This document shows, piece after piece, positions 3,671-33,577 of a DNA stretch of 64,000 bases. Every line of letters begins with the position of its first letter. The first letter of the stretch is position 1. The stretch comes from Candidatus Kaiserbacteria bacterium (GTDB lineage: Bacteria; Patescibacteriota; Minisyncoccia; Phycocordibacterales; UBA2100). Below the pieces are notes generated by a model that was not told the DNA's origin, made no database searches, and worked only from the letters and a program-made list of their open reading frames with translations. Location of the stretch: contig JACROD010000005.1 of assembly GCA_016214605.1 (NCBI GenBank), forward strand, positions 6,108 to 70,107, read 5' to 3'. A program made the translations under genes and the position numbers.

Positions 3671-4666
3671 TTAGTGTGCCGCTTTCCTAGAGATGACCTT
3701 GCGGATCGCGTCTTTGATATGCGATACCCCCATGTGGTAATGCTCGATCAGCTCTTTGGGCTCTCCTGATTGTCCGAATTGGTCGTGGACACCGATGAAT
3801 TCGATCGGTACCGGATGTTCCTGTGCGAGCACCTCGGCGATCGCACTCCCGAGCCCTCCGGCGATCTGATGTTCTTCGACCGTGACGACCGCTCCGGCGA
3901 GTCGCGCCTGCGCTTGAATCGTCTCTCGATCAAGCGGCTTGATGGTAGCGACATTGACGACATGTACTCCTACCCCCTCATCCCCCATTTGCTTCGCCGC
4001 GAGCATCGCATTGTGCAGAAGCGGGCCCGTGGCAAAGATGACCGCCTGCGGATTGTCTGCGGTGAGAAACACTTGTGCCTTGCCTATCTCAAATGGCGTC
4101 TCGGTGGTGGTCATCAGCGGAGTCTTTTCGCGCCCGAAGCGCAGGTATACTGGGCCGTCCCATTGTGCCGCCGCGATCGTCGCCTTGCGGGCTTCTTCAG
4201 CATCGCATGGAGAGATCACGGTCATATGGGGCTGTACGCGCATGAGCGCCATGTCTTCGAGCGCCTGATGTGTCGCCCCGTCGGGACCGACCGAGATACC
4301 GGCATGCATGCCGCAGACCTTGACTGGTACGCGGTTGAGCGAGATGGTCGTGCGGATCTGCTCATTGTTGCGCCCCGGATTAAAAGCTGCATATGAGGTG
4401 ATGAATGGGATCTTGCCCGCCGCCGCAAATCCCGCGCCGAGTGTAGCGAGATTTTGCTCGGCCACACCCACCTCGATATATCGCTCGGGAAATTGCTTTT
4501 TGAATCCTTCGACGCGGGTCGATTCGGTGAGGTCGGCGCAGAGCGCCACGACCCTACTATCGGCCATAGCCGCTTCGATAAGCCCATGCCCAAAACCATC
4601 GCGCGTCGGCGACTGCTCGGGAGCATCAAACATGTTTTCTTTGAGGTGGAGGTCGGGGTTTAACAT
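3671..4666 (-). CDS. tktB: Transketolase, C-terminal subunit (pyrimidine-binding plus C-terminal domain of a split transketolase).
   Basis: 331-aa ORF. Diagnostic segments include YIEVGVAEQNLATLGAGFAAAGKIPF and PVKVCGMHAGISVGPDGATHQALEDMALMR. Confidence 0.9.
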   Translation of the reverse strand: MLNPDLHLKENMFDAPEQSPTRDGFGHGLIEAAMADSRVVALCADLTESTRVEGFKKQFPERYIEVGVAEQNLATLGAGFAAAGKIPFITSYAAFNPGRNNEQIRTTISLNRVPVKVCGMHAGISVGPDGATHQALEDMALMRVQPHMTVISPCDAEEARKATIAAAQWDGPVYLRFGREKTPLMTTTETPFEIGKAQVFLTADNPQAVIFATGPLLHNAMLAAKQMGDEGVGVHVVNVATIKPLDRETIQAQARLAGAVVTVEEHQIAGGLGSAIAEVLAQEHPVPIEFIGVHDQFGQSGEPKELIEHYHMGVSHIKDAIRKVISRKAAH

Positions 4667-4671
4667 AGAGA

Positions 4672-5075
4672 GAAGTTTACAGTAGATAGTTTACAGATTA
4701 CAGTTTTTTAATGAGTGACTCCAGCATCTTTTGCACCTCTTTGAGTATATCGAGCAATGGTTCGTTATCGAAACCAAACAACTCCTTTGACAGTAATAAT
4801 TGCGTCTCTAGTTCGGCTGCTGATCCCGCTGCTATTCTCAGGAACTGTGTGAAGTCTTTTTTGGTGCCCCGTTTTGATCCCTCTGCTATGTTTGATGGGA
4901 TCGAAACGGCACTTCGACGCATTTGACTAGTGAGTCCAAATTTCTCTTCCGACGGGAATTTACTCGTATGCACATACAAATCACGAGCAAGATCCATTGC
5001 CTTTTGCCATACTATTAATTTTCGAAAATCATTCATGTTTTTCTGTCTACTGTAAACTGTCATCTGTAAACTGCT
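4672..5075. repeat. Inverted repeats flanking the four-helix-bundle gene. The left arm is 4675..4703 (gtttacagtagatagtttacagattacag) and the right arm is 5043..5073 (ctgtctactgtaaactgtcatctgtaaactg). There is a 12-bp perfect complement between gtttacagtaga and tctactgtaaac.
   Basis: Read directly from the sequence. Each arm carries two copies of the agtttacag/ctgtaaact motif. The arms overlap the tktA stop, the 4HB start and the 4HB stop. Confidence 0.8.
4698..5063 (-). CDS. Four-helix-bundle protein of the 23S rRNA intervening-sequence family (TIGR02436-like).
   Basis: 121-aa ORF. Segments WQKAMDLARDLYVHTSKFPSEEKFGLTSQMRRSAVSIPSNIAEGSKRGTKKDFTQFLRIAAGSAAELETQLLLSKEL match the characteristic family motifs. 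It is inserted between tktA and tktB. Confidence 0.8.
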   Translation of the reverse strand: MTVYSRQKNMNDFRKLIVWQKAMDLARDLYVHTSKFPSEEKFGLTSQMRRSAVSIPSNIAEGSKRGTKKDFTQFLRIAAGSAAELETQLLLSKELFGFDNEPLLDILKEVQKMLESLIKKL

Positions 5076-5934
5076 ACTGATGTTCGCTTGTTACTTTACC
5101 CTGCATGGTACGTAGCTCATGGAGAAATGTCTGCGCTTCTTCCTTGGACGGCGGTTTGCCGTGCCAGCGATAATCGCGCTCGATCTCGCGGATGCCTTTG
5201 CCGGGAATGGTGTGTGCGATGATCACGGTCGGCTTCTCGTAGATCGCCTTGGCTTCGTCGCATGCGGCGATAAACTGCGGGATGTTGTGCCCATCTATCT
5301 CGAGCACGTGCCAACCGAATGATTCGTATTTTTCGCGTAGAGGCTCAAGCGGCATGATGCTCTCTGTGTATCCATCTATCTGTATATTGTTGCGATCAAT
5401 GATACCGGTGAGATTGTAGAGCTTGTTGGCGCCCGCCCACATAGCCGCTTCCCAGATGTTGCCCGCATCATGCTCGCCGTCGGACATGGCGCAATAGATG
5501 CGATTCTGTTTGCCATCCATGCGCAGAGCGTATGCCATCCCCGCCGCTTGCGAAAGGCCGGAGCCGAGCGGGCCCGATGTGGTCTCCATACCCGGCAAGC
5601 GCAAGCGCTCGGGGTGCCCCTGCAGACGCGAGCCAAATTTGCGCAAGGTCAGGCATTCTTCTATGGGAAAATATCCCGCATGCGCCATGGCGGCATAGCG
5701 CACCGGCACGATGTGACCATTTGATAGTATGAGACGATCGCGCTCTTCCCAATCGGGATTCTGCGGGTCGTGTTTGAGCACGTTGAAATAGAGTGCTGTG
5801 AATATATCCGCCATACCGAGCGGCCCCGCCGTGTGACCACTGCCTGCCGCGACAAGCATCTCGATGATGGTCTGCCGGATCGCATTGGCGCGCGCAGTCA
5901 GCTCGTATACCTCAGAGTCGGTGAGCGGTTGCAT
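5074..5934 (-). CDS. tktA: Transketolase, N-terminal (thiamine-diphosphate-binding) subunit.
   Basis: 286-aa ORF with the GSGHTAGPLGMADI TPP-binding signature and GHPE/GPLGSGL motifs. Confidence 0.9.
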   Translation of the reverse strand: MQPLTDSEVYELTARANAIRQTIIEMLVAAGSGHTAGPLGMADIFTALYFNVLKHDPQNPDWEERDRLILSNGHIVPVRYAAMAHAGYFPIEECLTLRKFGSRLQGHPERLRLPGMETTSGPLGSGLSQAAGMAYALRMDGKQNRIYCAMSDGEHDAGNIWEAAMWAGANKLYNLTGIIDRNNIQIDGYTESIMPLEPLREKYESFGWHVLEIDGHNIPQFIAACDEAKAIYEKPTVIIAHTIPGKGIREIERDYRWHGKPPSKEEAQTFLHELRTMQGKVTSEHQ

Positions 5935-6011: not shown

Positions 6012-9000
6012 TTAATTCGAAATAAAGTTCAGCTTTGAGAAGTTGATGCCGTGGTTGTACCCGCCCGCGGTGGACCAGAAGTATAGCTTGATGGTCTTTG
6101 GTTTGCGCCAGTTGGCCGTGCTGTCGAACGTGGGTGTCGTCACGGGAGTGTACGAGCCATAGGTGATAGTCACGTTCCCACCATTTGCCTTGATCGAGAA
6201 CGGCTGCACTTTCCTTATGGCCAACAAGAACGACTTGAATTCCGTCATCTGAAAGATCACCTGGTTGTTAGCGAAGACCCTATAATCGTTCGCTGTCACC
6301 TGTTTTGTATACAGGCGCGAGATTACCTTGCCTGCGTCATCCAATACGTCGAAATACATGCCTTCGTAATCACCCATATTTGGCGATCCTGACAAACCTG
6401 ACGCGAATACCACCGCACCAGTAAGCATCCAGCTGGTTGTTGAAGCGTCCGGGGTACCCAAGTCGCGAGTGACTGTCGCATTTGCAGCAGGTCGGTGCGC
6501 AAAGAGAATGTCGATGTCAGGTGAATCGTACAGGTGTTTGTTCCACGGGTAGTTTTTGAGACTCGTTATGACCTTCCACCAATCAGTTTGCAAATTATTA
6601 GTGGTGTCGGTCGCGGGCGTACGGCGCCAACCAGCAGTATCGTCGGCAACACTGCTGTCGTAGGGCAGGCCTGCGAGGAGATCAGTCGGGTCCTTACGGG
6701 GGACATACTTGGCTGCATCCCAGTTGACCGGGATCTTTTGCTCGCTAATGCTCGAGAGATTATCGATCTTCCAACGATGAATCCCGCCGTGCCAGCCTTC
6801 GTCGTTTTGATACACGTAGATCGCACCATCGGGACCTTTCACGAGCCCCTGCGCCGCCGCATTACCTGCAAGGCCCGCCTGACCTTCGTTCTCTTGGCCA
6901 TTCGGCAGATCCTGCTCTACAGTGCCAAATTCACCGATCATGAGACCGTCGTCACTGACGTGTGTCCACATATTCGACTGATCTCGACCGCACTTCCACC
7001 CCTCGCCCTGGTAATGCCAGAAGATGTTGTTATCGACGGCATGCGCAAAACTGCCAGCAACGTAGACACGTTCGTTATTGTTGAACGTCCCGTCTCCCGG
7101 CCATTCACTACAGTAGTGGATGCCCGTCGATGGTGCAGTCTTCCACCGCCAAGTACCGGTGTTTGTATCGAGTCCGGCAAGATGATAGCCTTTGTGGTCT
7201 ACTGGATCGGTTGCATACGCCCCCGTAAAAACAGGACTGCGTGCATCGAACGAGACAATGATGCCCGAATTGGTCATTTCCCAGGGGACGAAACTCCCTC
7301 CCGAGGGTAGATTGTAGTGATCGTCCGAAGAAGCAAGGATAGGTGACGTACCGACCACTTTCTCGAGACCCCACTGCGGATCACCTGCAGCGGTAAATCC
7401 GGTCAGCGGCTTCTTTCTCCATTCGAAGGACTCTCCGATTTTTGGTCGATTCACCACATGTAACGAGCCGTCTTTATAGAGTGTATAATTGTAGTTCGGA
7501 GTCGAAGCGCTGGTAAAACGCAGGGTTCCAATTTCCGGGAATTCGACCACATCGAATTTGGCTGTTTGGAAGTTGCGCAGAAGCCCGTAGGTACGCCCGT
7601 TGTTGAGGGTTGTCATGCCGAATGGTACTGCGAAGACATTTTTTGACGCCAGCACGTATTGCGGAGGAAGCTTCTCTTTCACTATCCCCCAATTCTTCAC
7701 GAGCTTCCATGAGCCAGTATTGGGCCCCTGCGGCTTTGCATAATCGACGGCGAATTCGAGAAACCCCGCAAAGATCCGCTGGGGATTATTGGGATCGACG
7801 GCGGTATTGTAGAAAAGTGGCACCCATGAGACTGATTCAAGGAGTGTGCGGCTCGCACTGAAGTGCTGCGAGCGATCATTGCCTGAGTCACCCACCCAGA
7901 AGGAACCATCGGGAGCATAGGTGAGAAATGTCCAATCGACACCGCCACGGAAGGTGATGTTATTGAAGTTGTGAAAGGAAAACTTATCCACGGCGACATT
8001 CGGATCACTAAGGTAGCCGCCTGGTTTGCCATAGATCCACGTAGAAGATGCGGTCGTGTTACTGAAGGCCTTGACCTGGTGGCTCGTGCCGCCATCAGCG
8101 ACAAGGAGCGTTGCATTGTCGGGTGAGATGGCAAGTGTCAAGGGTTTAGAAAGACCGGTGATCTTGAGATTGGAGATAGCCGAGAGCGAGCCGTCGGCGG
8201 CAACAGTATACTTTTGTACGACTGCCGCCGTCTCGGATCCGGTAATGACCCAGAGATTGCCGCTCATATCCGTTGCGATCTTGCGCGGTGCGGTCATGGC
8301 GATGGCACGCACGAAGGCGCCGGTCGTCTTGTTGAGAACATCTATTTTGTTCAGATCGCCATGCGCCACAAAGAGGTAATCGCCGCTCTTCTGTACCGCA
8401 AGACCCGTGATGGTCGAGGAAGCAACATCGAGATTGTTGATGGCGCTGTACTTTCTCGGCACACCATCGGGACCAGCGACGCCGATGGTAACATCGGTAC
8501 CACTGAGGAATTTCACCATGGTGTCGTCGCTCACTTTGGTGGCATATACATAGACGTGGTTGTTGACGTTGGGATATCCGCCCCAGTCCATACCATCCCA
8601 GTACACATAATTACCATCGGTTGCGACGTAGAGAGCTATCGGGCCGGTGTAATGGAACGCCGTAGGAAGAATAATCGTTTTGGCCTGAGGATTCGAAACA
8701 CTTGTTTTGAACGTGCCGGAGCGCGCCTCGTTGTAAGCGGTAGTGTAGTAGATGGTCGAACCCGTGATTGCCATGCCGTAGATGACATCCTGCGCATGAA
8801 GTGTGGTGGAGTCCGTAAAACTGGTCGAGGTGTTACCGATCACGTCCCAGCTATAGCGGACGTTATTGGAGAGAATGCGGACCTCATAAATGCCGCCTGG
8901 GGCAACCGCACCGCCGTCTTTGGTACCATCCCACGTCGCAGTGTGCGCTCCGGCAGAATACTGTACATTGCTCCAGAGTGTCTTTATAAGCGTTCCGTTT

Positions 9001-10256
9001 TGATACACACCGGCGCTCGTGGTGGCGGCGGTATTGAGGTTGAAGGTGAAGGTCGTACCCGACTGCACGATGCTGTACGTGAAGGTTGCGACTGGCGAAG
9101 AAACGGCCAAATAACAGGAAATTGCTTTGATCGTCTTGGTGGTAGAGGCAACAATGGGTTTGGTGTAGATCGGACTTGTCGTGCAGGTCGGGTTAGAGCC
9201 GTCGGTCACATAGCGCACGTGCACGATTGATTGGTAGTTAGAAATCGACGAAAGGGTTGATGTTGCGGTCGAGGTGGCGAGCACAATATTCTGCGTGCTC
9301 CCGTACGTGCTCGGTGCGGGCGTGGCGACCGGCGGCGGGATGTAATTCGCGAAGATAACGTTTACGGTACTAGTGGCGCGATTGCCTGCCGCATCGCGTA
9401 CGACCGCAGAGAGTGCGTGCGGACCATTAACAAACGAACCGAAATTCACTCCTATTCCGGGGGACGGCACGCGCTTATCTTCGCCACCGTAATTCTTGCC
9501 GTCGATCTTGAATTGTGTACCAATGGTCGTGGTGCTCACTCGTGTCCCGATCGTGAACCCACCCGAGACGGTCGCACCATCTTTGGGTGCACCGATCGTG
9601 ACCCACAACGCGTTGTTTGTGGTGGAAGTGGAGGTGGTTGAGGTCGTCGAGGTGCCGAGGACAGCGGGAGCGCCTGCGGCGGATGTATCAGCAAATGAGG
9701 ATGCGGATTCTCTCTCCCCTGCATCTGTTGTGATCTGAGAAACTGCGCCACCTGCAGGTGGTGGCAAGAGAGCATTCGTGGCAAGTGCTGTTGACCGTAC
9801 TTGGTTGATGTGTGCACGAGTGAGCTTGCCCACATGCCCGACTTGTTCGAGATTCTGCGCTTGCTGGAAACGGCGCACCGCCGCTCTCGTGAGCGGGCCG
9901 AAGTAGCCGGTGGCGCTGTCGGGAGCGAGGAGATTCTGCGCGATGAGAAAACGCTGGAGGCAAGTGACGTCGTCTCCCTTTGCGCCGAGGGCGAGGGTGC
10001 GGGAGAGGGTGCAGGTCACAGCAGAAGCGGCAGCGCCTCCGGCACTGCCGCCTCCCTGCTGAACGAGTCCAGAGAGATTGGCAGGAATCGCCACAGGGGC
10101 ACCGCCGAGAGCGACGATTTGTTTTTGAAGTTCGAGGACTTGAGTGATGAGCTGAATTAAGAAAGTGTTCTTTTCTTCAGGGGTGAGGGCTTGTGTGAGG
10201 AGAGGAGTTGCTAATAGTACGACGACTACCCAAGTCGTTAGCTGTTTGTTATGCAT
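6012..10256 (-). CDS. Large secreted/cell-surface protein (1414 aa). Architecture: signal peptide, peptidoglycan-binding domain (PG_binding_1-like), Ig/chitobiase-like and FlgD-Ig-like domains, and beta-propeller repeats.
   Basis: N-terminal signal MHNKQLTTWVVVVLLATPLLTQALT. The PG-binding-like segment is DDVTCLQRFLIAQNLLAPDSATGYFGPLTRAAVRRFQQAQNL. Repetitive propeller-like segments follow (YAT.G.Y, beta-strand rich). Confidence 0.6.
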   Translation of the reverse strand: MHNKQLTTWVVVVLLATPLLTQALTPEEKNTFLIQLITQVLELQKQIVALGGAPVAIPANLSGLVQQGGGSAGGAAASAVTCTLSRTLALGAKGDDVTCLQRFLIAQNLLAPDSATGYFGPLTRAAVRRFQQAQNLEQVGHVGKLTRAHINQVRSTALATNALLPPPAGGAVSQITTDAGERESASSFADTSAAGAPAVLGTSTTSTTSTSTTNNALWVTIGAPKDGATVSGGFTIGTRVSTTTIGTQFKIDGKNYGGEDKRVPSPGIGVNFGSFVNGPHALSAVVRDAAGNRATSTVNVIFANYIPPPVATPAPSTYGSTQNIVLATSTATSTLSSISNYQSIVHVRYVTDGSNPTCTTSPIYTKPIVASTTKTIKAISCYLAVSSPVATFTYSIVQSGTTFTFNLNTAATTSAGVYQNGTLIKTLWSNVQYSAGAHTATWDGTKDGGAVAPGGIYEVRILSNNVRYSWDVIGNTSTSFTDSTTLHAQDVIYGMAITGSTIYYTTAYNEARSGTFKTSVSNPQAKTIILPTAFHYTGPIALYVATDGNYVYWDGMDWGGYPNVNNHVYVYATKVSDDTMVKFLSGTDVTIGVAGPDGVPRKYSAINNLDVASSTITGLAVQKSGDYLFVAHGDLNKIDVLNKTTGAFVRAIAMTAPRKIATDMSGNLWVITGSETAAVVQKYTVAADGSLSAISNLKITGLSKPLTLAISPDNATLLVADGGTSHQVKAFSNTTASSTWIYGKPGGYLSDPNVAVDKFSFHNFNNITFRGGVDWTFLTYAPDGSFWVGDSGNDRSQHFSASRTLLESVSWVPLFYNTAVDPNNPQRIFAGFLEFAVDYAKPQGPNTGSWKLVKNWGIVKEKLPPQYVLASKNVFAVPFGMTTLNNGRTYGLLRNFQTAKFDVVEFPEIGTLRFTSASTPNYNYTLYKDGSLHVVNRPKIGESFEWRKKPLTGFTAAGDPQWGLEKVVGTSPILASSDDHYNLPSGGSFVPWEMTNSGIIVSFDARSPVFTGAYATDPVDHKGYHLAGLDTNTGTWRWKTAPSTGIHYCSEWPGDGTFNNNERVYVAGSFAHAVDNNIFWHYQGEGWKCGRDQSNMWTHVSDDGLMIGEFGTVEQDLPNGQENEGQAGLAGNAAAQGLVKGPDGAIYVYQNDEGWHGGIHRWKIDNLSSISEQKIPVNWDAAKYVPRKDPTDLLAGLPYDSSVADDTAGWRRTPATDTTNNLQTDWWKVITSLKNYPWNKHLYDSPDIDILFAHRPAANATVTRDLGTPDASTTSWMLTGAVVFASGLSGSPNMGDYEGMYFDVLDDAGKVISRLYTKQVTANDYRVFANNQVIFQMTEFKSFLLAIRKVQPFSIKANGGNVTITYGSYTPVTTPTFDSTANWRKPKTIKLYFWSTAGGYNHGINFSKLNFISN

Positions 10257-20300: not shown

Positions 20301-23300
20301 GCGGCGGTTCCTCCACTGATAGTGAGGAGACCACCACTGCCACCCGTGTCAGTACCTGCACCACCGGCGCCAGCGTTGATAGTGACCGCACCGCCTGCAC
20401 CGCCGGTACGTGTGCCTGGTGTCCCGTTGGCGTTGGTAGCGGCACCGCCGGTGCCGGCTGTCCAGGTAAATGCTCCTCCGATGCCGCCGGTGTTGTTGCC
20501 GGTCGTGTTGCCGTTGGCAGCACCGCCGGTGCCTCCTGTCCAGGTGAAGGGGCTGCCCGCGCCACCGGTGTTGTTGCCGGTACCGGCGACGGAGGCCGCG
20601 CCGCCGACGCCGCCGGTCATGGTGAAGGTGCCGCCGGTGCCGCCGGTGGAGAGGACGTCGGCTGCGGTGGCGGTGCCGCCGGTACCCAGCGTGAATGCAA
20701 ATCCACTGCCGGTGCCGCCCAGGGCTGTACCGGTATTCGTATTGGTGCCGCCCAATCCACCCGTGAGAGAGATTGCACCGCCGGCAAGCGTACTTGATGC
20801 ACTCGAAGCACCGGCAGTGAGTGTGATGGCACCACCTGCATTATTTCCCTTCGATGCTCCGGCAGTGATCGCGATGGCGCCGCCAGCACGAGCCACGCTG
20901 TTATCTCCGCCTGCCAATCCGCCCGTGAGGGTGATCGCGCCGCCGGCGCCGCCCGAGCCGGTCGTGCCGCCGGCCGCACCGGTGATAGTAACGGCGCCGC
21001 CGGCAGAGCTCGTGGCCGCGGCAGCAAGACCGCTGGAGAGCGAGAGGCCGCCGCCGTTGCCGCCTGTGTCAGTACCAACGCCGCCGGCGCCGGCACGTAG
21101 TGTGATCGCACCGCCGACGCCGCCGGTGCGTGTGCCCGGTGTCCCATTGGCGTTGGTAGCAGCACCGCCGGTGCCGGCTACCCAGGTGAAAGCACCGCCG
21201 GTGCCGCCGGTGTTGTTGCCGGTCGTATCCCCATTGGCCGCGCCGCCGATACCGCCTGTCCAGGTGAAGGCACTGCCCGCGCCGCCGGTATTGTTGCCGG
21301 TACCGGCGACGGAGGCCGCGCCGCCGACGCCGCCGGTCATGGTGAAGGTGCCGCCGGTGCCGCCGGTGGAGAGGACGTCGGCTGCGGTGGCGGTGCCGCC
21401 GGTGCCGAGGGTGAGCGTGAGCGCACTGCCGGCGCCGCCGGTGCGCGTGCCTGTGTCGGTAGTCACACCACCCGTGATGCCTGCGATGTTCAAGATCGAA
21501 GTCGCTGCCGTACCGTTGCCCGATGACGCCGATGTCGGCTGTGTACCCGAGACATGGAGCATTGAGGTGGGTGCCGTGATGCCGATACCGACGAGATTGG
21601 TCGGCAAGATGCGCATCGCTTCGCCGAGACTACCTGCATTGAGGGTGAGGAATGCGAGCGCACCCGATGAAGCACCTGCGGTATGCGCGGTGTTGATGCC
21701 GACGATTTGTGCAGAAGAAGTGGCTCCGCCATTGGTCAGATCCTGTGTGCGGAATGCGAGTGTCGAGAAATTGTTGGCGGTCGTATTGCGGTTGCTGATC
21801 GAAAGCGTCGTGCCAGACGTGAAGGTGTTGAGTGTCGTACCCGCATCAGAGCCGGAGATTTCGATCGCGGAGTTGGGGCTTGTGGTGCCGATACCAAATC
21901 TGTTGTTCGTGTCATCCCAGAAGAAGTTGCTGTTATCCTGCGTAAGCGAAGTGCCATTGGAGAATATCACCGAGCCGGCGGTGTATGCAGAGGAGTTGTT
22001 GGTACCGCCATTGGCAATGGCGAGTACACCGGTCAGATAATTGGTGCCGATGGATGTCGTCGCAACAACTTGGCCGCTACTATTCGTAGAGAGTATCGCG
22101 TTGGTGATACTGGGAATATTAAGGATGCCGAGCGAAGCTGTCTGCGCGAAGAGATTGGTCGATGATGCCGTCGTAGAGAAGAGATTCGTGGTGGTGGCAT
22201 TGCCCAAGATCGTGAGGCCGGTGGCAGTAAAATTGGTCGTGCTCGCTCCCCCGTTCATACTGAAGAGTCCTGAGGTGATCGTGCTAGATGCGGTGGAAAG
22301 GAAGCCGCCGGAGAGAGTCGCGAGGCCGGTGTCTCCCGCGATCGAGAAAAGCGAGGTGCCGGTCGAGCTTGCGATGACGAAAAGCGGATTGGTCTGGCCT
22401 GCCGTGCCCGCGAGCGAGAGACTGCCCCATGGCGTGGTGGTGCCGACGCCGACGTTGCCACCCATGAAGAGACCGGCGATCGGTGTGGTGGCGCTCGATG
22501 ATGCGACATACGAGAAGATGCCGCCGGTGGAGTAGATGCCTCCCGCACCGGCGTTGAAAGTATCGGCAAAGATATGACCCTGCGAGGTGAGATCGTTGCG
22601 CAGTTGCAAAGAGCCCGCGTCGAGCGTACCCACAGCCAGCGATTGCAGATCGGCACCGGTGATGTCGTGTACGACAAGGTCATTGCCCGAGATGCTCGAC
22701 AGCCCGACGAATGCGCTATGACCGGAGACAACGAGACCTTGGACGTTGGCATTTTCGTCAACACCGCCGACGGCAATCGGATTGTATGGATCGGATATGT
22801 CGTACACGCGGAAGTCGCAGCCGGTGATCGTTGTTGAGTTGCACGAACCAGCGAGCGAGCTTACACCGAGATACATATATCGTCCCGAGACTTGGACAGT
22901 CTGCGCAGCAGCGGCACTGATGACCGAGGTGGTGGCGATCGCGGTCGGGTTGGAAACATCGTAGATGATGAGGTTGCCCGTGACGCCGCCCGTGTCTTTG
23001 CCTACGTAGGCATAATTGCCCGAGACGGCGATGGCGCGGCCGTTGGTGCCGAGGTCCATACCGCCGACAGTGACGGGGGCAGCGGGATTGGAGATGTCCA
23101 CGATGATAAAGTCGTTGCCGGTAACACTTCCTTGGGCGATATACGCATAATTACCCTGTACGCGCAGACCAATACCGGCAGTACCCAAATCGAGCCCGCC
23201 CACCGTTACCGGATTGGTCGGATCCGAGATGTCGATGATACGGAAGTCGTTGCCGGAAACAGAGTTCAAAGTCACGTACGCATAATGCCCCGAAACGACC

Positions 23301-32300: not shown

Positions 32301-33577
32301 TACTGACCGCTTAAGTCAGGCAGGTCGGCGGATGTGAGGCCTGTGACGCCATTGACATGTACGTTCGTTAGGAGTGTTCCATTCAGCGAATCGATATGCT
32401 GCGTCAATGCGATCTGATTTGCGACACCACCGCTTGCAGGCGGCGCCACGGGGGTAAATTGCGAGACCTGTAGCGACTGAGCAAATTGCTGGAGGCGCCT
32501 ATCAAGGTCATTCGTCGTTATACCGCTTGTCGCCGGCAGCGAATATGCAGTGTTGTTGTAGACATTATGGGTCTCATTGTTCGTCGTGTTATAGGTGTTG
32601 TTATAGGTGTTGTTTACAACGCTCGACGGCGCCATAACACCACCACCGAATGATGCGAATCCTCCCGATGCAACAGTGGCAGGAGGCGACGAAAGAGCAG
32701 ATTTGGCTGTTGGCGTAATGTGCACATACACAGATCCTTGCTGTCCGACATCCCAGCCAAATACTCGCAAAATATTAGCAAAGAAGCCACCGATACTACT
32801 CACCACATGAGAAGGAATACTTTCTTCGATCGCCGCAACATTCTGAACGCGACTCGGCGATGTATTGTTGGTGAGGGATGCATGTCGCGTTATCGCGTTT
32901 TGCGATGATCCGATAAAAGCCATGAAAACGAAGACAATAGCCACCGTCGCAAAGACTCCTTTCAGAGACACAAGAGAGCGCATCGAGGACATAGAATACG
33001 CAGCCGGGTCCGACACTGATCTGGGGGCACGACTCGCCAGAGTTTTTGTTTCCTCCCCAGCGACCAAGGGAGATTCTTTCACGAGCTTTTCTTGTACAGG
33101 CGACAGAATCCTTTCGGTAATACCAAGGGCTTGGGGATTAAACTGGAGAATCTCATATACAGAAACCGGACGCGGTGAGACACCCTTTGCAGCAAAGAAG
33201 TCCGAGACGGATTCTTTATCGACAAGCCAGAGACCGTCTTGTACGACACCCCGGATTTTCTTCTGGCGACAAAGACGTGAAATGTGATCATTCGTCACTC
33301 CAAAAAGAGCTGCCGCATCCTTGGACGAGATGTATTTTGCTACGCGATGTATGACCTCCCGCACAGAAACCGGACGCGGTGAGACACCCTTTGCAGCAAA
33401 GAAGTCCGAGACGGATTCTTTATCGACAAGCCAAAGACCGTCTTGTACGACACCCCGGATTTTCTTCTGGCGACAAAGACGTGAAATGTGATCATTCGTC
33501 ACTCCAAAAAGAGCTGCCGCATCCTTGGACGAGATGTATTTTATTTGGTAGTCGTTTCTTTGGATTGTGTCGCCCAT
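17309..33577 (-). CDS. Giant 5422-aa membrane-anchored surface protein. N- to C-terminal architecture: two identical wHTH-like (excisionase/MerR-like) repeats, a TM helix, S/T-rich segments, multiple families of tail-fibre-like repeats (ANGGT motif), a triplicated Gly-rich module, an LVIVD beta-propeller, a DUF5011-like Ig domain, and a Ser/Thr-rich C-terminal tail.
   Basis: A single uninterrupted 16,269-nt ORF with a TGA stop. N-terminus KYISSKDAAALFGVTNDHISRLCRQKKIRGVVQDGLWLVDKESVSDFF appears twice. Hydrophobic segment VFATVAIVFVFMAFIG. Repeats NYLSGILPIANGGTATGTQVTNGVNFFDGTRITSGTALTF occur at least 6 times. The LVIVD-like repeats include FRIIDISDPTNPV, FIIVDISNPAAPV and LIIYDVSNP. The C-terminal segment APIISVNGNNPASIQVGSVYSDLGATITG...THTIRYFATDASGVQGSATRTVVV is DUF5011-like. 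Confidence 0.85.
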   Translation of the reverse strand: MGDTIQRNDYQIKYISSKDAAALFGVTNDHISRLCRQKKIRGVVQDGLWLVDKESVSDFFAAKGVSPRPVSVREVIHRVAKYISSKDAAALFGVTNDHISRLCRQKKIRGVVQDGLWLVDKESVSDFFAAKGVSPRPVSVYEILQFNPQALGITERILSPVQEKLVKESPLVAGEETKTLASRAPRSVSDPAAYSMSSMRSLVSLKGVFATVAIVFVFMAFIGSSQNAITRHASLTNNTSPSRVQNVAAIEESIPSHVVSSIGGFFANILRVFGWDVGQQGSVYVHITPTAKSALSSPPATVASGGFASFGGGVMAPSSVVNNTYNNTYNTTNNETHNVYNNTAYSLPATSGITTNDLDRRLQQFAQSLQVSQFTPVAPPASGGVANQIALTQHIDSLNGTLLTNVHVNGVTGLTSADLPDLSGQYLAVSGGTLTGLLKSTYSGTSTFSGGLGAGVLSISSTTATSTFANGIALSGGCFSVNGNCITTGGGGGTPGGSSGQIQFNNGGVFDGVSNFSYNASSGNLGIGTTTPTARLAIVASSTDTTSTLFSLASSTGATVFSVSNIGGITFVSATGQSATTTSFFSTISSSTHLFSTDAILGTATITSATTTSLFASLFNAATGTITNLTTTSATATNFFATTASSTNLYATAANIGGLSVNSLSIGSLNGLLKATAGVISTGFVNLASDVTNVLSIANGGTGTSSAPTYGKLLMGNSGGTFDYVSTTSLGINSAIWGSITGTLSNQTDLQSALDAKLSLLSWYATTTDGLAQGSTNKYYSDTLVNTYLNTLNKGYFFSTTSSDYWKTANNFFSTTSTAYWETTQTRWATTSASYFLSQNQGLAFSTTSTDYWKTQQTFTGASTTLLSDANTWSGTNVFSGNATLTRATTTAFAITSLTNSILSTNANGSVVASTTIGWNLLKGPASSIFAFDSSGNPTATTTIGTNYLIGPANAILSTNASGAVVATTSIGTNYLTGILGIANGGTGQSTFTSSQLLYGNGTNGLTSVATSSVSAGTGVTFTGTAGFLVGGSALTINTPWTLGASNAIYSNNSGNVGIGTTTPQTKLEVSDNTSASTTPFSLSNFGSATSSTKVSLAFKTDDIVHNTGTTTASIFSIFQGGTGGVPQTGNGDLAFATLRSGTLTEGARLTSAGSFGIATTAPSATFAVSGNVFIWGNATTTNTFATTASSTNLFSQLASLGTLNLNATTSKLLATDVNGMVIATTTIGVNYLSGILPIANGGTATGTQVTNGVNFFDGTRITSGTALTFNGTTFGAPLFNSTQTSGTSTIASGQGFTIGGTQLVVQQGSGRVGIGTNAPSYTLDVSGTGRFTSTLALGSVTTCTGGQALQTDGSGNISCGTISVGGASTGGGWTTNSIGRVTLATTTDLAVVGASTTPYAKFSILSGSAATTTLVLSAAASQSANLIDIYDANGVLSTVLTADGKLGLGNSAPTDKLNVQGAVSAQYFNATSSTASTFTGGLIAQASSTFSALLNLSQSTTSLATFTNNTWFTGIAASSLLALDANQKLVATTSIGWNLLKGPASSIFAFDSSGNPTATTSIGVNYLSGILGIANGGTNASSIGSHMLTAFDGTRIVSTSTPTAAAYLATSSTANSIFAGKLGVGSLTAPTYTLDVNGFVNTDGTTGGYKQAGNTVLYASTTNTSLAVGASAAAAWMSASSTSWNDIAIGSGALATIPTDHLGSNGQLNTSIGIQSLSANTIGYGNTAIGYYALTSNTTGVVNTAIGTNALNKNIGSYNTANGSNALFNNTTGSNNSANGYYALFYNGSATSTTAFGAYAGQGNGNYSNQGGTVVGMQAGFNFATGSDYNTLLGYQSGYGITTGARNVLLGQSTIAASQNQVTTGSNNIAIGNDVAIASSTLSNQLVIGNLIYGTGLSGTGATISTGNIAIGTSTPYSKLTTWGTANLFEAVNNSSSTVFLIGQNGATSTNFAATTICFTGDTCRTTWPSSGTSWPWTIATTFGTSTNATTTPTWYQMGFYASSTSQLASANIWNTLALKATTSKLLATDANGMVIATTSIGVNYLSGILPIANGGTATGTQVTNGVNFFDGTRITSGTALTFDGTNLGINDTTPSYSLDVNGFINTDGTTGGYKQAGNTVLYASTTNTSLAVGASAAAAWMSASSTSWLSVAIGQGALGTTPTSGTAIANTAVGYNALSSNTTGQINTATGYLALFSNTTGTNNTASGNSTLQSNTTGGSNTALGARSLIFNTTGSSNTASGYNALLSNTTGSSNVAVGSSASNFNQSATSTVAIGSSAAIGTANYSNQGGTVIGFSAGRGFTTGSDYNTLLGYQSGYAITTGARNVLLGQSTITASRDQVTTGSNNIAIGNDVAVPSATASNQLVIGNLIYGTGLSGTGATISTGNIAIGTSTPYSKLTTWGTGSLFEAVTNSSSTVFSIGQNGATTTNFAITNLASAILSTNANGSVVATSSIGVNYLSGILPIANGGTATGTQVTNGVNFFDGTRITSGTALTFNGTTFGAPLFNSTQTSGTSTIAAGQGFTIGTSQFVLQQGSGNVGIGTSTPGSLLSVAGDVYASGFYNTSGTTGGYKIDGNLILQASSTLNSFFIGQSAGNTSTTGLQNYGLGTFALSAITTGDFNNAMGRAAMNALTTGSSNTAMGNESLRLNTTGSDNVAIGANASRLNISATSSVAIGSSAGNAAANFNNQGGTYVGYLAGYGAQTNSDFNTLFGYQSGRGITTGSNNIWIGTATSSAAIANLTTGSQNILIGNNISFPSATASGQLNIGNIIYGTGITGTGSTVSSGNIGIGTTTPYSKLTTWGTANLFEAVNNSSSTVFLIGQNGATSTNLFSTTASSTNLFSQTASLGILNLRATTSKLLATDANGMVIATTSIGVNYLTGILPIANGGTNNSTGGTTNGVMYFDGTKFTSDGGLTYTPSSSFFVNDLATFASGFTSQGLSTFDGNIVANASSTFSAPLNIAQSSTTLATFSGSTWLTNLTASTLLALDANKKIVSTTTIGWNLLKGPASSIFAFDSSGNPTATSTIGLNYLKGGNNLLLSTDSSGNVVGTTSVGVNYLSGILPIANGGTATGTQVTNGVNFFDGTRITSGTAITWNGTTFAASNISTGGTLGVTGLSTLGGFISTASSTITSGLFSANGGASTTNFTATGLVILGNATTTNLFSTTASSTNLFSQLASLGTLNLKATTSKLLATDANGMVIATTSIGVNYLSGILPIANGGTATGTQVTNGVNFFDGTRITSGTALTFDGTNLGVGTTSPQERLTVMGGNIFQTGGSGNSGQLYNPALLGGVDLGIGVGESLFGGQDMTVVGNTLYLVTASTTANTGCSTSDMSDCELRIFDIATGTPRFLGGADFGPTATAHGNGIAVAGQYAYVTVSTVAGTCNSTTATGCEFRIYDISNPSAPLFKGGLNFAISGINVVVSGHYAYVTLNSVSGNDFRIIDISDPTNPVTVGGLDLGTAGIGLRVQGNYAYIAQGSVTGNDFIIVDISNPAAPVTVGGMDLGTNGRAIAVSGNYAYVGKDTGGVTGNLIIYDVSNPTAIATTSVISAAAAQTVQVSGRYMYLGVSSLAGSCNSTTITGCDFRVYDISDPYNPIAVGGVDENANVQGLVVSGHSAFVGLSSISGNDLVVHDITGADLQSLAVGTLDAGSLQLRNDLTSQGHIFADTFNAGAGGIYSTGGIFSYVASSSATTPIAGLFMGGNVGVGTTTPWGSLSLAGTAGQTNPLFVIASSTGTSLFSIAGDTGLATLSGGFLSTASSTITSGLFSMNGGASTTNFTATGLTILGNATTTNLFSTTASSTNLFAQTASLGILNIPSITNAILSTNSSGQVVATTSIGTNYLTGVLAIANGGTNNSSAYTAGSVIFSNGTSLTQDNSNFFWDDTNNRFGIGTTSPNSAIEISGSDAGTTLNTFTSGTTLSISNRNTTANNFSTLAFRTQDLTNGGATSSAQIVGINTAHTAGASSGALAFLTLNAGSLGEAMRILPTNLVGIGITAPTSMLHVSGTQPTSASSGNGTAATSILNIAGITGGVTTDTGTRTGGAGSALTLTLGTGGTATAADVLSTGGTGGTFTMTGGVGGAASVAGTGNNTGGAGSAFTWTGGIGGAANGDTTGNNTGGTGGAFTWVAGTGGAATNANGTPGTRTGGVGGAITLRAGAGGVGTDTGGNGGGLSLSSGLAAAATSSAGGAVTITGAAGGTTGSGGAGGAITLTGGLAGGDNSVARAGGAIAITAGASKGNNAGGAITLTAGASSASSTLAGGAISLTGGLGGTNTNTGTALGGTGSGFAFTLGTGGTATAADVLSTGGTGGTFTMTGGVGGAASVAGTGNNTGGAGSPFTWTGGTGGAANGNTTGNNTGGIGGAFTWTAGTGGAATNANGTPGTRTGGAGGAVTINAGAGGAGTDTGGSGGLLTISGGTAAAATSSAGGGVSILGDVGTSIGSGGAGGALTLTAGAAAGDNSVARAGGAVTVTAGASKGQNAGGAITLTTGAASASSTLAGGLLTLTTGAGGTNTNTGTATGGAGGGHTFSMGAGGTATAADVLSTGGAGGTFTMTGGVGGAASVAGTGNNTGGAGSAFTWTAGTGGAASGNTTGVNTAGAGGAVALSAGTGGAATNANATPGTRTGGAGGALTLNAGIGGTGTDVAGVGGAMIFKTAQTTSLTEQMRITNTGLVGIGTTTPFWKLTVASSTGPQIALTDGTASSNAWTFRSISNSFYIATSTATATSTVAALAINSNGAATFGNNLTVNGTASLQQATTTTFAITSITNSILSTNANGSVVASTTIGWNLLKGPASSIFAFDASGNPIATTTIGTNYLIGPANAILSTNASGAVVATTSIGVNYLTGILGIANGGTATGTQVTNGVNFFDGTRITSGTALTFTGTNLGIGTTTPMGLLTIATSSATAANAAMKIQSNSGTTTVTFFTSTTTFLTTSGVAATAAQASNYMIIGNGSTAASVSIVNGGLCVDSDGWCFASTTGRVSSVTSTTGGSDVAEMYASHDTLVPGNIVATAGNVAIKAAVTDTKHHIIGIVSTAPGLTLGFNPDGTFDTTDNHYPVALVGRVPVLVNLDNGPIAIGDRIALSTSTPGVGMKADPMDPSVAIALQAYQTGATSTAILAFVNLQDINVSAIQAIASSTFATSSQTAIIDGPFAGVSQMLHDTLSLALASVSGIAGTGVRELGGAVHGSLAAFDKVFAKEIYADNITAQKVTAVQQMCVGTTCVTEAQLQALLASAAVASGGGGSGAAGATGGSTGGVSSGATTPTATTATGSVAPIISVNGNNPASIQVGSVYSDLGATITGPTSALNLGISAIVDGGATTTIDQIHIDTSVTGTHTIRYFATDASGVQGSATRTVVVYDPTTTTSPAEETASGTTTINTTTSSTDTSTSTPSTIDTSTSSSTAPVDSTTTSTSQ
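19560..21700 (-). repeat. Triplicated ~720-bp module encoding a Gly/Ala/Thr-rich (PGRS-like) ~240-aa repeat inside the giant gene.
   Basis: The protein repeat TGNNTGGAGSAFTWTGGxGGAANGxTTGNNTGGxGGAFTWxAGTGGAATNANGTPGTRTGG occurs 3 times. DNA landmarks recur at ~19690, ~20420 and ~21135. Confidence 0.75.
23790..31500 (-). repeat. Array of diverged to near-identical intragenic repeats (units ~130 bp to ~1.4 kb) encoding ANGGT-type tail-fibre-like repeats.
   Basis: The ~130-bp unit ...gtgatccgcgtaccgtcgaagaagttcacaccgttggtgacctg.gtgccggtcgc.gtgccgcc.ttggcgatcgg.a.gat.cc... recurs at ~18900, 23810, 24290, 24830, 26080, 27320 and 29760. The 26361..26480 segment is 100% identical to 27805..27924, with ~90% identity over the adjoining ~200 bp. 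19020..19290 is ~85% identical to 30640..30900. Confidence 0.8.
33159..33542 (-). repeat. Tandem direct duplication (two copies of ~180 bp with a 204-bp period and one mismatch) at the 5' end of the giant gene. It encodes the two wHTH-like repeats.
   Basis: Copy 1 is 33159..33338 and copy 2 is 33363..33542. The only difference is g/a (ccagagacc vs ccaaagacc). Confidence 0.9.

Follow-up and report, generated by a model that had tools for sequence, protein, structure and literature searches.

Introduction

The closest described system to the locus analysed here is the intervening sequence (IVS) in helix 45 of the Coxiella burnetii 23S rRNA, an element of 428 nt that carries S23p, an ORF of the four-helix-bundle (4HB) family (Warrier 2016, PMC4990558; also Afseth 1995). 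RNase III cuts the 28-bp stem into which the termini of this IVS pair. Before the S23p ATG, the 5' arm carries three GACAGAT heptamers in tandem plus GACAGAA, with a copy number that varies among strains (PMC4990558). The Leptospira IVS (Ralph & McClelland 1993) is taken here as it is cited in the Coxiella paper (PMC4990558), and the literature also mentions occasional PF05635 copies within rRNA insertions of CPR bacteria. In protein-coding surroundings, Zhang & Ye (2013, PMC3936711) describe PF05635 genes, there called 23S_rRNA_IVP, that are embedded in cas operons, with a Pleurocapsa gene between cmr3 and cmr2 as one example, and give RxxxSxxxNxxE as a motif of the family. A further set of short repeats, made of the heptamer TAACTGA in direct orientation, precedes start codons by a few nucleotides in Beggiatoaceae, Cyanobacteria, and Bacteroidetes, and was proposed to be bound by an unidentified post-transcriptional regulator (MacGregor 2015, PMC4679880).

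Here, we describe a 4HB gene situated between the two genes of a split transketolase in the window, i.e. the whole 64-kb stretch of Candidatus Kaiserbacteria DNA that was analysed. An earlier sequence-only reading of this DNA had interpreted the locus as an inserted and mobile element of the IVS type, with arms that can pair, and this view of the nature of the element proved largely right.

An insert at the tktN/tktC junction

The three genes concerned, tktN, the 4HB ORF, and tktC, all lie on the minus strand in one orientation (Table 1). In mRNA sense, the upstream arm begins immediately 3' of the tktN stop codon, and the downstream arm overlaps the last leucine codon and the TAA stop codon of the 4HB ORF. 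Both arms end shortly before a start codon, the upstream arm 6 nt before that of the 4HB ORF and the downstream arm 7 nt before that of tktC. The short sequences that fill these gaps recur elsewhere, as a similar purine-rich spacer is found in three related loci (L173, L175, and L176) and a similar T/C-rich tail in four (L161, L163, L173, and L176).

Table 1. Position of the cassette, its component parts, and the adjoining host genes in the window (arm sequences in mRNA sense)
Feature	Position	Strand	Description
Whole cassette	4667..5073	-	407 nt; in place of the 1-nt spacer of empty-site relatives
tktN, transketolase N-terminal subunit (host gene upstream)	5074..5934	-	PF00456 Transketolase_N, E 2.6e-56
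Native stop codon of tktN	5074-5076	-	TAG; C-terminus ...SEHQ* kept in relatives
Upstream arm	5043..5073	-	31 nt; CAGTTTA CAGATGA CAGTTTA CAGTAGA CAG; TRF period 7
Purine-rich spacer, upstream arm to 4HB ATG	5037..5042	-	AAAAAC; read from the sequence
4HB ORF	4698..5036	-	112 aa; PF05635/TIGR02436 family
Downstream arm	4674..4703	-	CTGTAAT CTGTAAA CTATCTA CTGTAAA CT; five cores
Pyrimidine-rich tail, downstream arm to tktC ATG	4667..4673	-	TCTCTCT; read from the sequence
tktC, transketolase C-terminal subunit (host gene downstream)	3671..4666	-	PF02779 Transket_pyr, E 7e-40; PF02780 Transketolase_C, E 4e-25

Comparison with relatives defines the empty site. The C-terminus of TktN is conserved in relatives, so that the stop codon bordering the cassette is the host's own and the 407 nt replace a spacer of one base. 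Among the 80 closest tktN relatives, which were recovered from metagenomes and share 72-96% amino-acid identity, at least 14 have a junction made of the tktN stop codon, a single T, and the tktC ATG (for example L082, L087, L088, L089, L091, and L093). In 10 more, the two genes are separated by 2-4 nt, which brings the empty sites to at least 24 in total, and in 13 others they overlap. None of the 80 encodes a 4HB gene at the tktN/tktC junction. In addition, the GC content of the cassette (0.40) lies 17 points below that of the flanking tkt genes (0.58 and 0.57). The cassette is thus a DNA-level insert located exactly between the tktN stop and the tktC start and co-oriented with the operon. 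The empty stop-T-ATG sites and the GC deficit bear out the proposal that it was inserted into a split transketolase. Two details of that proposal needed correction: the native junction, put on a scale of ~43 nt between tktA and tktB, is 1 nt long in relatives, and the element, although present as described, does not extend over 4672-5075 but over the interval given in Table 1.

Comparison of the filled site with the empty ones reveals no target-site duplication, and a profile search detected no transposase or recombinase domain in the cassette. In spite of its inverted arms, the cassette does not qualify as a classical IS or MITE. The promoter scan of the cassette yielded just weak 9/12 matches, which are made by the TTTACA of the arms themselves and of which none is convincing, and no terminator was found inside the cassette in the same analysis. 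Since a convincing promoter is lacking within it, transcription of the cassette by read-through from the host promoter seems most likely. Rfam families, rRNA included, are absent from the 64-kb window, so that the cassette does not have the rRNA-gene location by which IVSs are defined.

The four-helix-bundle protein

The assignment of the ORF between the transketolase halves to the TIGR02436 four-helix-bundle proteins, made in the sequence-only reading, is confirmed by profile searches. The ORF scores 122.8 bits against TIGR02436 (cutoff 24), 127.1 bits against PF05635 (cutoff 33.8, E 4e-37, profile positions 1-105 of 106), and 141.1 bits against NF008911 (cutoff 137), and the neighbouring genes carry the transketolase domains expected of the two halves. 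The RxxxSxxxNxxE motif is present as RSAVSIPSNIAEG, and the length of 112 aa falls within the ~110-125 aa of the family. The protein is 100% identical to P0001, which is annotated as 'four helix bundle protein [Candidatus Kaiserbacteria bacterium]'. A longer reading of 121 aa would start at an ATG at 5063, within an arm repeat unit, and homologues do not use that ATG. No second 4HB gene was found in the 64-kb window by tblastn.

Among solved structures, the nearest is XCC0516 (PDB 2GSC, E 4e-21), and the crystals of the solved family members 2GSC and 2RLD each contain five chains. By homology to XCC0516, which is described as a pentamer in PMC4990558, the 4HB protein of the window is predicted to form a homopentameric toroid. 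Between orthologous cassettes, pN of the 4HB gene is 0.17-0.26 and pS is saturated (0.74-0.97), which indicates that the protein is under purifying selection and hence maintained. Profile searches of the 112-aa protein revealed no catalytic motif and no nuclease or recombinase domain.

Heptamer arms and their pairing

The arms are built from short phased repeats. Four copies of the motif AGTTTACAG are present in the 64-kb window, all of them in the arms, at 4674 and 4688 on the plus strand and at 5050 and 5064 on the minus strand, in agreement with the earlier observation of two agtttacag motifs per arm. With an expected count of 0.17 and a count of four reached in none of 100 shuffles, a chance origin of the arms was rejected. 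Each arm forms a tandem array of five cores at an exact spacing of 7 nt, with AG cores at 4674, 4681, 4688, 4695, and 4702 in one arm and CTG cores at 5043, 5050, 5057, 5064, and 5071 in the other. The complementary 12-bp perfect core that had been noted between the arms, GTTTACAGTAGA/TCTACTGTAAAC, was recovered as part of inverted repeat I4 (16 nt, 94%). In register, the inverted repeat spans 42 nt at 74%, and the best sub-matches (I3 and I4; 19 nt 95%, 16 nt 94%) are shifted by 14 nt, corresponding to two units. Given this offset, the arms are permuted copies of two-unit blocks. Of the ~30-nt inverted arms described before, the complementarity thus stands, but a simple or strict palindrome they are not.

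The prediction that the arms could pair and loop out the cassette holds in silico. The arm duplex has a calculated energy of -34 kcal/mol compared to -14.1±2.4 kcal/mol for shuffled sequences, and the minus-strand segment 4655-5090 folds at -114.8 kcal/mol (z = -3.45), with the arms paired and the ORF looped out in both the MFE and the centroid structures. The stem consists of two perfect 9-bp helices, separated by internal loops, plus short ones, and it covers the stop codon of tktN and the start codon of tktC as well. The pairing potential is retained in orthologous cassettes, with z values from -1.7 to -9; the weakest values belong to L161 and L163, in both of which the main array lies farther upstream.

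If a helix in the sense RNA were under selection, G·U pairs should be favoured among the mismatches between arms. Across 60 arm pairs, we counted 57 G·U, 64 A·C, and 208 other mismatches, so that transversion mismatches dominate and an excess of G·U is not seen. The mismatch spectrum shows no strand-specific sign that a helix in the sense RNA is selected for, and it lends the RNA-stem model no support. The arm sequence itself is conserved among orthologues whose synonymous sites are saturated. This conservation exceeds the needs of base pairing and points to sequence-specific recognition. The possibility that the heptamers exist to provide stop codons in all three frames was also considered; 40% of upstream arms contain such stops compared to 26% of shuffles, a modest enrichment that we did not find convincing.

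Family-wide anatomy

The 80 closest homologue loci in GTDB species genomes (44-62% identity; 83 analysable genes) come from CPR, Bacteroidota, Gamma-proteobacteria, Clostridia, Planctomycetota, Acidobacteriota, and one archaeon. A flanking inverted-repeat score of at least 24 was reached by 58% of the 83 genes and by none of 337 control position pairs (Mann-Whitney p 3e-22); a significant inverted repeat is absent in the remaining 42%. Strongly tandem-periodic arms were found in 31-36% of cases vs. 0.9% of control windows, and the period is 7 in 57 of the 73 detected arrays. Array length has a sharp mode at 4-5 units, with a median of 4.43 units, equal to 31 nt or five cores. The unit sequences vary widely among loci (GACACAA, TAGTGGG, GAGTACT, AGTCGAT, and others), yet AG is contained in 50 of 57 unit consensuses vs. 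34 expected, and AGT in 30 of 57. Upstream arms are G-rich and downstream arms C-rich. Loci with more similar proteins tend to have more similar heptamer units, a weak but significant trend (Mantel r = -0.18, p < 0.001) that would be expected from joint movement or joint evolution of gene and arms.

The GC content of the ORF is below that of its flanks in 81 of 83 genes. Based on crude ORF calls, ~70% of the genes are wedged co-directionally between protein genes, with both neighbours in the same orientation as the 4HB gene in 57 cases (+,+) and opposite to it in 6 (-,-), and the median gap between the upstream stop codon and the ATG is 51 nt by the same crude calls, or roughly one arm. An Rfam search found rRNA in none of the 80 homologue loci, so that the comparison with IVSs rests on the published Coxiella element (PMC4990558). 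Having inverted arrays of about five heptamers on either side of the ORF, as in an IVS, is a trait of the PF05635 family wherever its members are located, and for this family rRNA is the exceptional location and intercistronic operon junctions are the usual one. This reverses the earlier premise that 4HB genes classically reside in rRNA genes and that a place in an operon is the exception. In the searchable literature, heptamers beside a PF05635-family ORF appear in the Coxiella case only (PMC4990558), and a link of heptamers to non-rRNA copies, ORF-less palindromes, or orphan heptamer arrays was not found there, nor was a family-wide generalisation of the IVS anatomy.

Distribution and mobility

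The insertion is not unique to the window. Its five closest 4HB homologues (P0002, 74%; P0005, 69%; P0026, 68%; P0036, 67%; P0016, 66%) stem from other Kaiserbacteria-like genomes and are all encoded directly after tktN, before either tktC or a PCC-domain gene preceding tktC. They have the same type of arm, for example TAA-ACAGTTTACAGTAGACAG...ATG, or TAG-ACTGTAAACTGT...ATG in L169. It had been argued that the same gene found in relatives without repeats would mark it as ancestral; the same gene does occur at this junction in other genomes, but there it has arms, and the 80 closest tktN relatives lack the gene at the junction. In a neighbour-joining tree of tktN, the six 4HB-bearing tkt loci are scattered among loci with empty sites, which implies either repeated insertion or repeated precise loss, and in both cases a mobile unit. 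Pairwise identities of the tkt and 4HB proteins correlate weakly (r = 0.36), as illustrated by L169 and L175, in which TktN is 59% and the 4HB protein 73% identical.

A further cassette with CAG-type arms (P0009, 69%) is located in another organism (L176) between genes for a DegT aminotransferase and an acetyltransferase, and here the upstream host gene terminates within the arm. All 16 loci of close homologues have the 11-mer ACAGTTTACAG at their arms, and none of 160 other loci contains it; the arm sequence thus travels with the 4HB subfamily. In every 4HB cassette examined, GC content is 6-17 points below that of the host.

Arrays are also found without the gene. Solo G-type arrays of five cores occur exactly at the tktN|PCC or tktN|tktC junction in L090, L095, L103, L105, L113, and L126 (in L090 as TGA TAGGGAC TAGGGAC TAGGTAA TAGGGAC TAGT ATG), and in the first four of these they stop 1 nt before the PCC start codon. 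In L159, four ORF-less palindromes of 60 nt, composed of AGTATGT units, fill successive intergenic spacers. These solo arrays and palindromes are probably derivatives of the cassette. In ~420 kb of related loci, 11 arrays have a period of 7, compared to 0-2 for each of the periods 5, 6, and 8-11. An association with phages was not apparent, as a search of viral contigs with an arm 17-mer returned nine chance matches within coding sequence and no 4HB gene. The patchy occurrence of the cassettes, the second operon, the ORF-less palindromes, and the solo arrays argue for mobility, and in this respect the comparative data, from the scattered tktN tree and the weak identity correlation to the locus in L176, favour what the sequence-only reading had suggested.

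Interpretation

We consider it probable that the locus represents an IVS-type four-helix-bundle cassette, i.e. a small horizontally moving element in which a PF05635 gene lies between inverted arrays of five 7-nt repeats. In the polycistronic transcript, pairing of the arms would give an interrupted stem of ~40 nt that surrounds the 4HB ORF and borders directly on the stop codon of tktN and the start codon of tktC. Judging from the 23S IVSs of Coxiella and Leptospira, this stem would be a likely substrate of RNase III, and its cleavage may free the 4HB message and detach the tkt messages from each other while leaving both tkt coding sequences intact. The 4HB protein, if pentameric, probably acts on its own five-core arms. 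Several observations run counter to this explanation, among them the missing excess of G·U over A·C (57 vs. 64), the 42% of the family without a significant inverted repeat, and the block-permuted arms with just two perfect 9-bp helices in register. The same applies to an arm sequence conserved beyond saturated synonymous sites, suggestive of recognition and not of pairing alone, and to the lack of a visible target-site duplication, transposase, or recombinase. The position of the five closest homologues at one and the same junction would be compatible with an old resident gene and repeated loss.

It is possible, though clearly less probable, that the arms act at the DNA level, as two-ended recognition sites comparable to the subterminal repeats of transposons. 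They would then be bound in inverted orientation by the pentameric 4HB protein or by a host factor in trans, with a role in insertion, excision, or maintenance, and RNA pairing would be incidental. Recognition of the arms by a protein would be compatible with the unbiased mismatches, the 42% of the family without a significant inverted repeat, the conserved arm sequence, and the mode of five cores, and as the solved family members are pentameric rings, the 4HB protein is itself a candidate for this role. The modal five cores per arm match the five chains in 2GSC and 2RLD, the block-permuted arms are not strictly palindromic, and ACAGTTTACAG is conserved despite saturated synonymous sites and exclusive to the 4HB subfamily of the window. 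The preference for AG in the unit consensuses (50 of 57, 34 expected) and the Mantel correlation between unit and protein similarity are likewise in line with recognition on DNA. However, the 112-aa protein has no catalytic motif or nuclease/recombinase domain, a target-site duplication is not visible, and a period of 7 nt is out of step with duplex DNA and its 10.5-bp repeat. Moreover, the proven elements of Coxiella and Leptospira are processed as RNA, and the co-orientation with host transcription (57 vs. 6) is predicted by an RNA-level lifestyle.

An unlikely explanation is domestication of the cassette as a vertically inherited part of the rpe-tktN-tktC operon of Kaiserbacteria, with the arrays controlling translation or mRNA stability upstream of start codons, the 4HB protein acting as the regulator, and the patchy distribution resulting from repeated loss. 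Such a role would fit the strong purifying selection on the protein, the position of all five closest homologues (66-74%) directly after tktN, and the arms that end 6-7 nt before the start codons of the 4HB gene and tktC. The solo arrays of L090, L095, L103, and L105, with 1 nt left between array and PCC start codon, could be read in the same way, as could the TAACTGA arrays near start codons in Beggiatoaceae, which were proposed as regulator binding sites (PMC4679880). Yet the cassette is absent from the junction in all 80 nearest tktN relatives, and because the filled loci are scattered among stop-T-ATG empty sites, many independent and precise deletions would be needed. The weak correlation of tkt and 4HB identities (r = 0.36), an equally similar homologue in an unrelated operon, and the GC content 6-17 points below that of the host in every examined case also speak for the mobile cassette and not for an operon member.

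Finally, a reading of the 4HB protein as Avd, the accessory protein of a diversity-generating retroelement (DGR), with the repeats as its template/variable-repeat system, is highly improbable, since PF05635 proteins are homologous to bAvd but the matches to PF22296 bAvd (23.1 bits, cutoff 40) and NF033474 (24.8 bits, cutoff 80) are far below threshold, the neighbours are transketolase halves with no adjoining reverse transcriptase or TR/VR pair, and the same anatomy is found at operon junctions in 80 loci without need of such a partner.

Implications

PF05635 has been an orphan family for ~30 years (since 1993) and is named after its rRNA location; the cassette anatomy makes its function testable. 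A cassette of this kind comes and goes at exact stop/start junctions and leaves its hosts unharmed. For genome annotation, this means that such insertions split CPR operons and could pass for native operon genes. The locus also raises the questions of whether RNase III cuts stems of this type in mRNA, whether the pentamer binds the five-core arms, and how a 400-nt element lacking a transposase is moved.

Comparison with known systems

REP/BIME elements with their RAYT transposases and MITEs are short palindromes in the intergenic spacers of operons that exist in gene-bearing autonomous and in ORF-less forms. A comparable pair of forms is seen here, with the four 60-nt heptamer palindromes in L159 as the ORF-less analogue, but the cassette differs in that it has no tyrosine-transposase or other catalytic gene, that its arms are tandem 7-mers, and that a target duplication is not visible. 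Avd reportedly forms a pentamer that binds nucleic acid and partners the reverse transcriptase of the DGR. Its bAvd form shares a homologous four-helix-bundle fold with the protein of the window, which is nevertheless encoded in a stand-alone cassette, falls below the Avd models, and lacks both a reverse transcriptase and TR/VR repeats.

TRAP is a ring-shaped homo-oligomer that binds 11 (G/U)AG repeats, and offers a mechanistic analogy in which phased cores on a single strand equal the number of subunits, in our case five cores per pentamer, although its fold is unrelated and the binding considered here is hypothetical. In a tentative extension of this analogy, which we regard as rather doubtful, PF05635 pentamers would recognise heptamer arrays of five cores by their sequence. 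Each subunit of the ring would contact one 7-nt unit, much as in TRAP, and the bound strand would be single-stranded RNA or DNA. Pentamers and arrays together would then define a widespread and unrecognised class of mobile or regulatory modules, comprising junction cassettes, rRNA IVSs, ORF-less palindromes, and solo arrays such as TAACTGA in Beggiatoaceae and possibly the heptamers of Cyanobacteria.

The TAACTGA arrays themselves (PMC4679880) resemble the arms in being tandem heptamers, with 2-6 copies, that lie a few nucleotides upstream of start codons in SD-poor contexts and are horizontally patchy. Written in the CTG register, TAACTGA becomes CTGATAA and resembles the CTGTAAA and CTGTAAT units of the downstream arm. 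In contrast to the cassette, these arrays are solo direct repeats (with one inverted case), have a different unit, and are described with no 4HB link; the similarities suggest that they may nevertheless be linked to 4HB proteins. The 23S_rRNA_IVP genes of cas operons share with the window gene a PF05635 ORF wedged between operon genes and the RxxxSxxxNxxE motif. In the accessible parts of that study they are treated as candidates for a Cas-associated function, and flanking inverted or heptamer repeats or mobility are not described there (PMC3936711).

The Coxiella 23S IVS provides the best match and supports the view of the cassette as an IVS-like element in a protein-coding operon. The two share a size class of ~430 nt, a 4HB-family ORF that is read in the same direction as the host transcript, and terminal inverted repeats around this ORF. 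In both, the 5' arm consists of heptamers with a CAG core (here CAGTTTA, CAGATGA, and CAGTAGA), followed by a purine-rich stretch and the ATG. Cleavage by RNase III has been demonstrated for the Coxiella element, whereas the present cassette is known from its sequence and in silico folds. The host site is an intercistronic mRNA junction here and helix 45 of the 23S rRNA there, the stem is interrupted (two 9-bp helices) in place of 28 nearly perfect base pairs, and the ORF, which is decaying in Coxiella, is under purifying selection in the cassette described here.

Heptamer arrays and four-helix-bundle cassettes at other loci

Loci L099 and L112, two of the tktN relatives, contain a second cassette for a four-helix-bundle (4HB) protein, ~63% identical, whose site in both is probably the gap-rpiB junction, judging from visual inspection of terminal peptide motifs. 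The arms of the L099 copy consist of TAGG-type heptamers similar to the solo arrays that L095 and L103 carry at their tkt junction; for L112, no TAGG-type heptamer array was evident in the flanking sequence displayed. The upstream arm of the orthologous cassette in L163 is enlarged to 175 nt, with GACAGTTTACAG motifs every 30–45 nt and ACC/GAATCC-rich spacers between them.

Heptamer arrays of five cores are also found without any 4HB gene, placed exactly between one stop codon and the following start codon (see table). In L126, the entire tktN gene is flanked by two such arrays that are complementary to each other. A further ORF-less form, a ~60-nt palindrome, is present in four copies in L159, occupying consecutive intergenic spacers of a single operon that includes the tkt genes, and in each copy AGTATGT heptamers stand directly against their own reverse complement.

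Positions of repeat elements, cassettes and other features
Feature	Sequence	Position	Setting
Second 4HB cassette	L099	609–992	
Second 4HB cassette	L112	107–565	
Enlarged upstream arm	L163	1326–1500	
Solo heptamer array	L090	3361–3392	
Solo heptamer arrays	L095, L103, L105, L113		Junction after tktN
Solo heptamer arrays	L126	2530–2559; 1637–1671	
ORF-less palindrome	L159	1062–1121; 1617–1676; 2432–2491; 5596–5655	
78-nt repeat arrays	Window	20442–20648; 21182–21368	
204-nt tandem repeat	Window	33159–33542	
1414-aa ORF	Window	6012–10256 (-)	Directly upstream of tktN

Other inserts at the transketolase junction

Across the relatives' loci (L081–L160), the stop/start junction between tktN and tktC is an insertion hot spot, occupied by small, unrelated elements that include a 141-aa PCC/DUF296 gene, a MazG-like gene, small membrane protein genes, type IV pilin-like genes, and toxin-antitoxin pairs. 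Further inserts, on the opposite strand in L127, L129, and L140, are ORFs of 214–224 aa with flanking hairpins, which we tentatively regard as putative transposase-like genes.

Further features of the window

An Rfam search of window positions 1–64000 returned no family at the gathering score, tRNA included. Two arrays of a GC-rich 78-nt repeat (~75% matches) contain a nested 9-nt periodicity and look like a repetitive coding region, and a 204-nt unit occurs elsewhere in 1.9 tandem copies with 99% identity. Among the relatives, L161, L169, L173, and L175 have rpe in place of the 1414-aa ORF.
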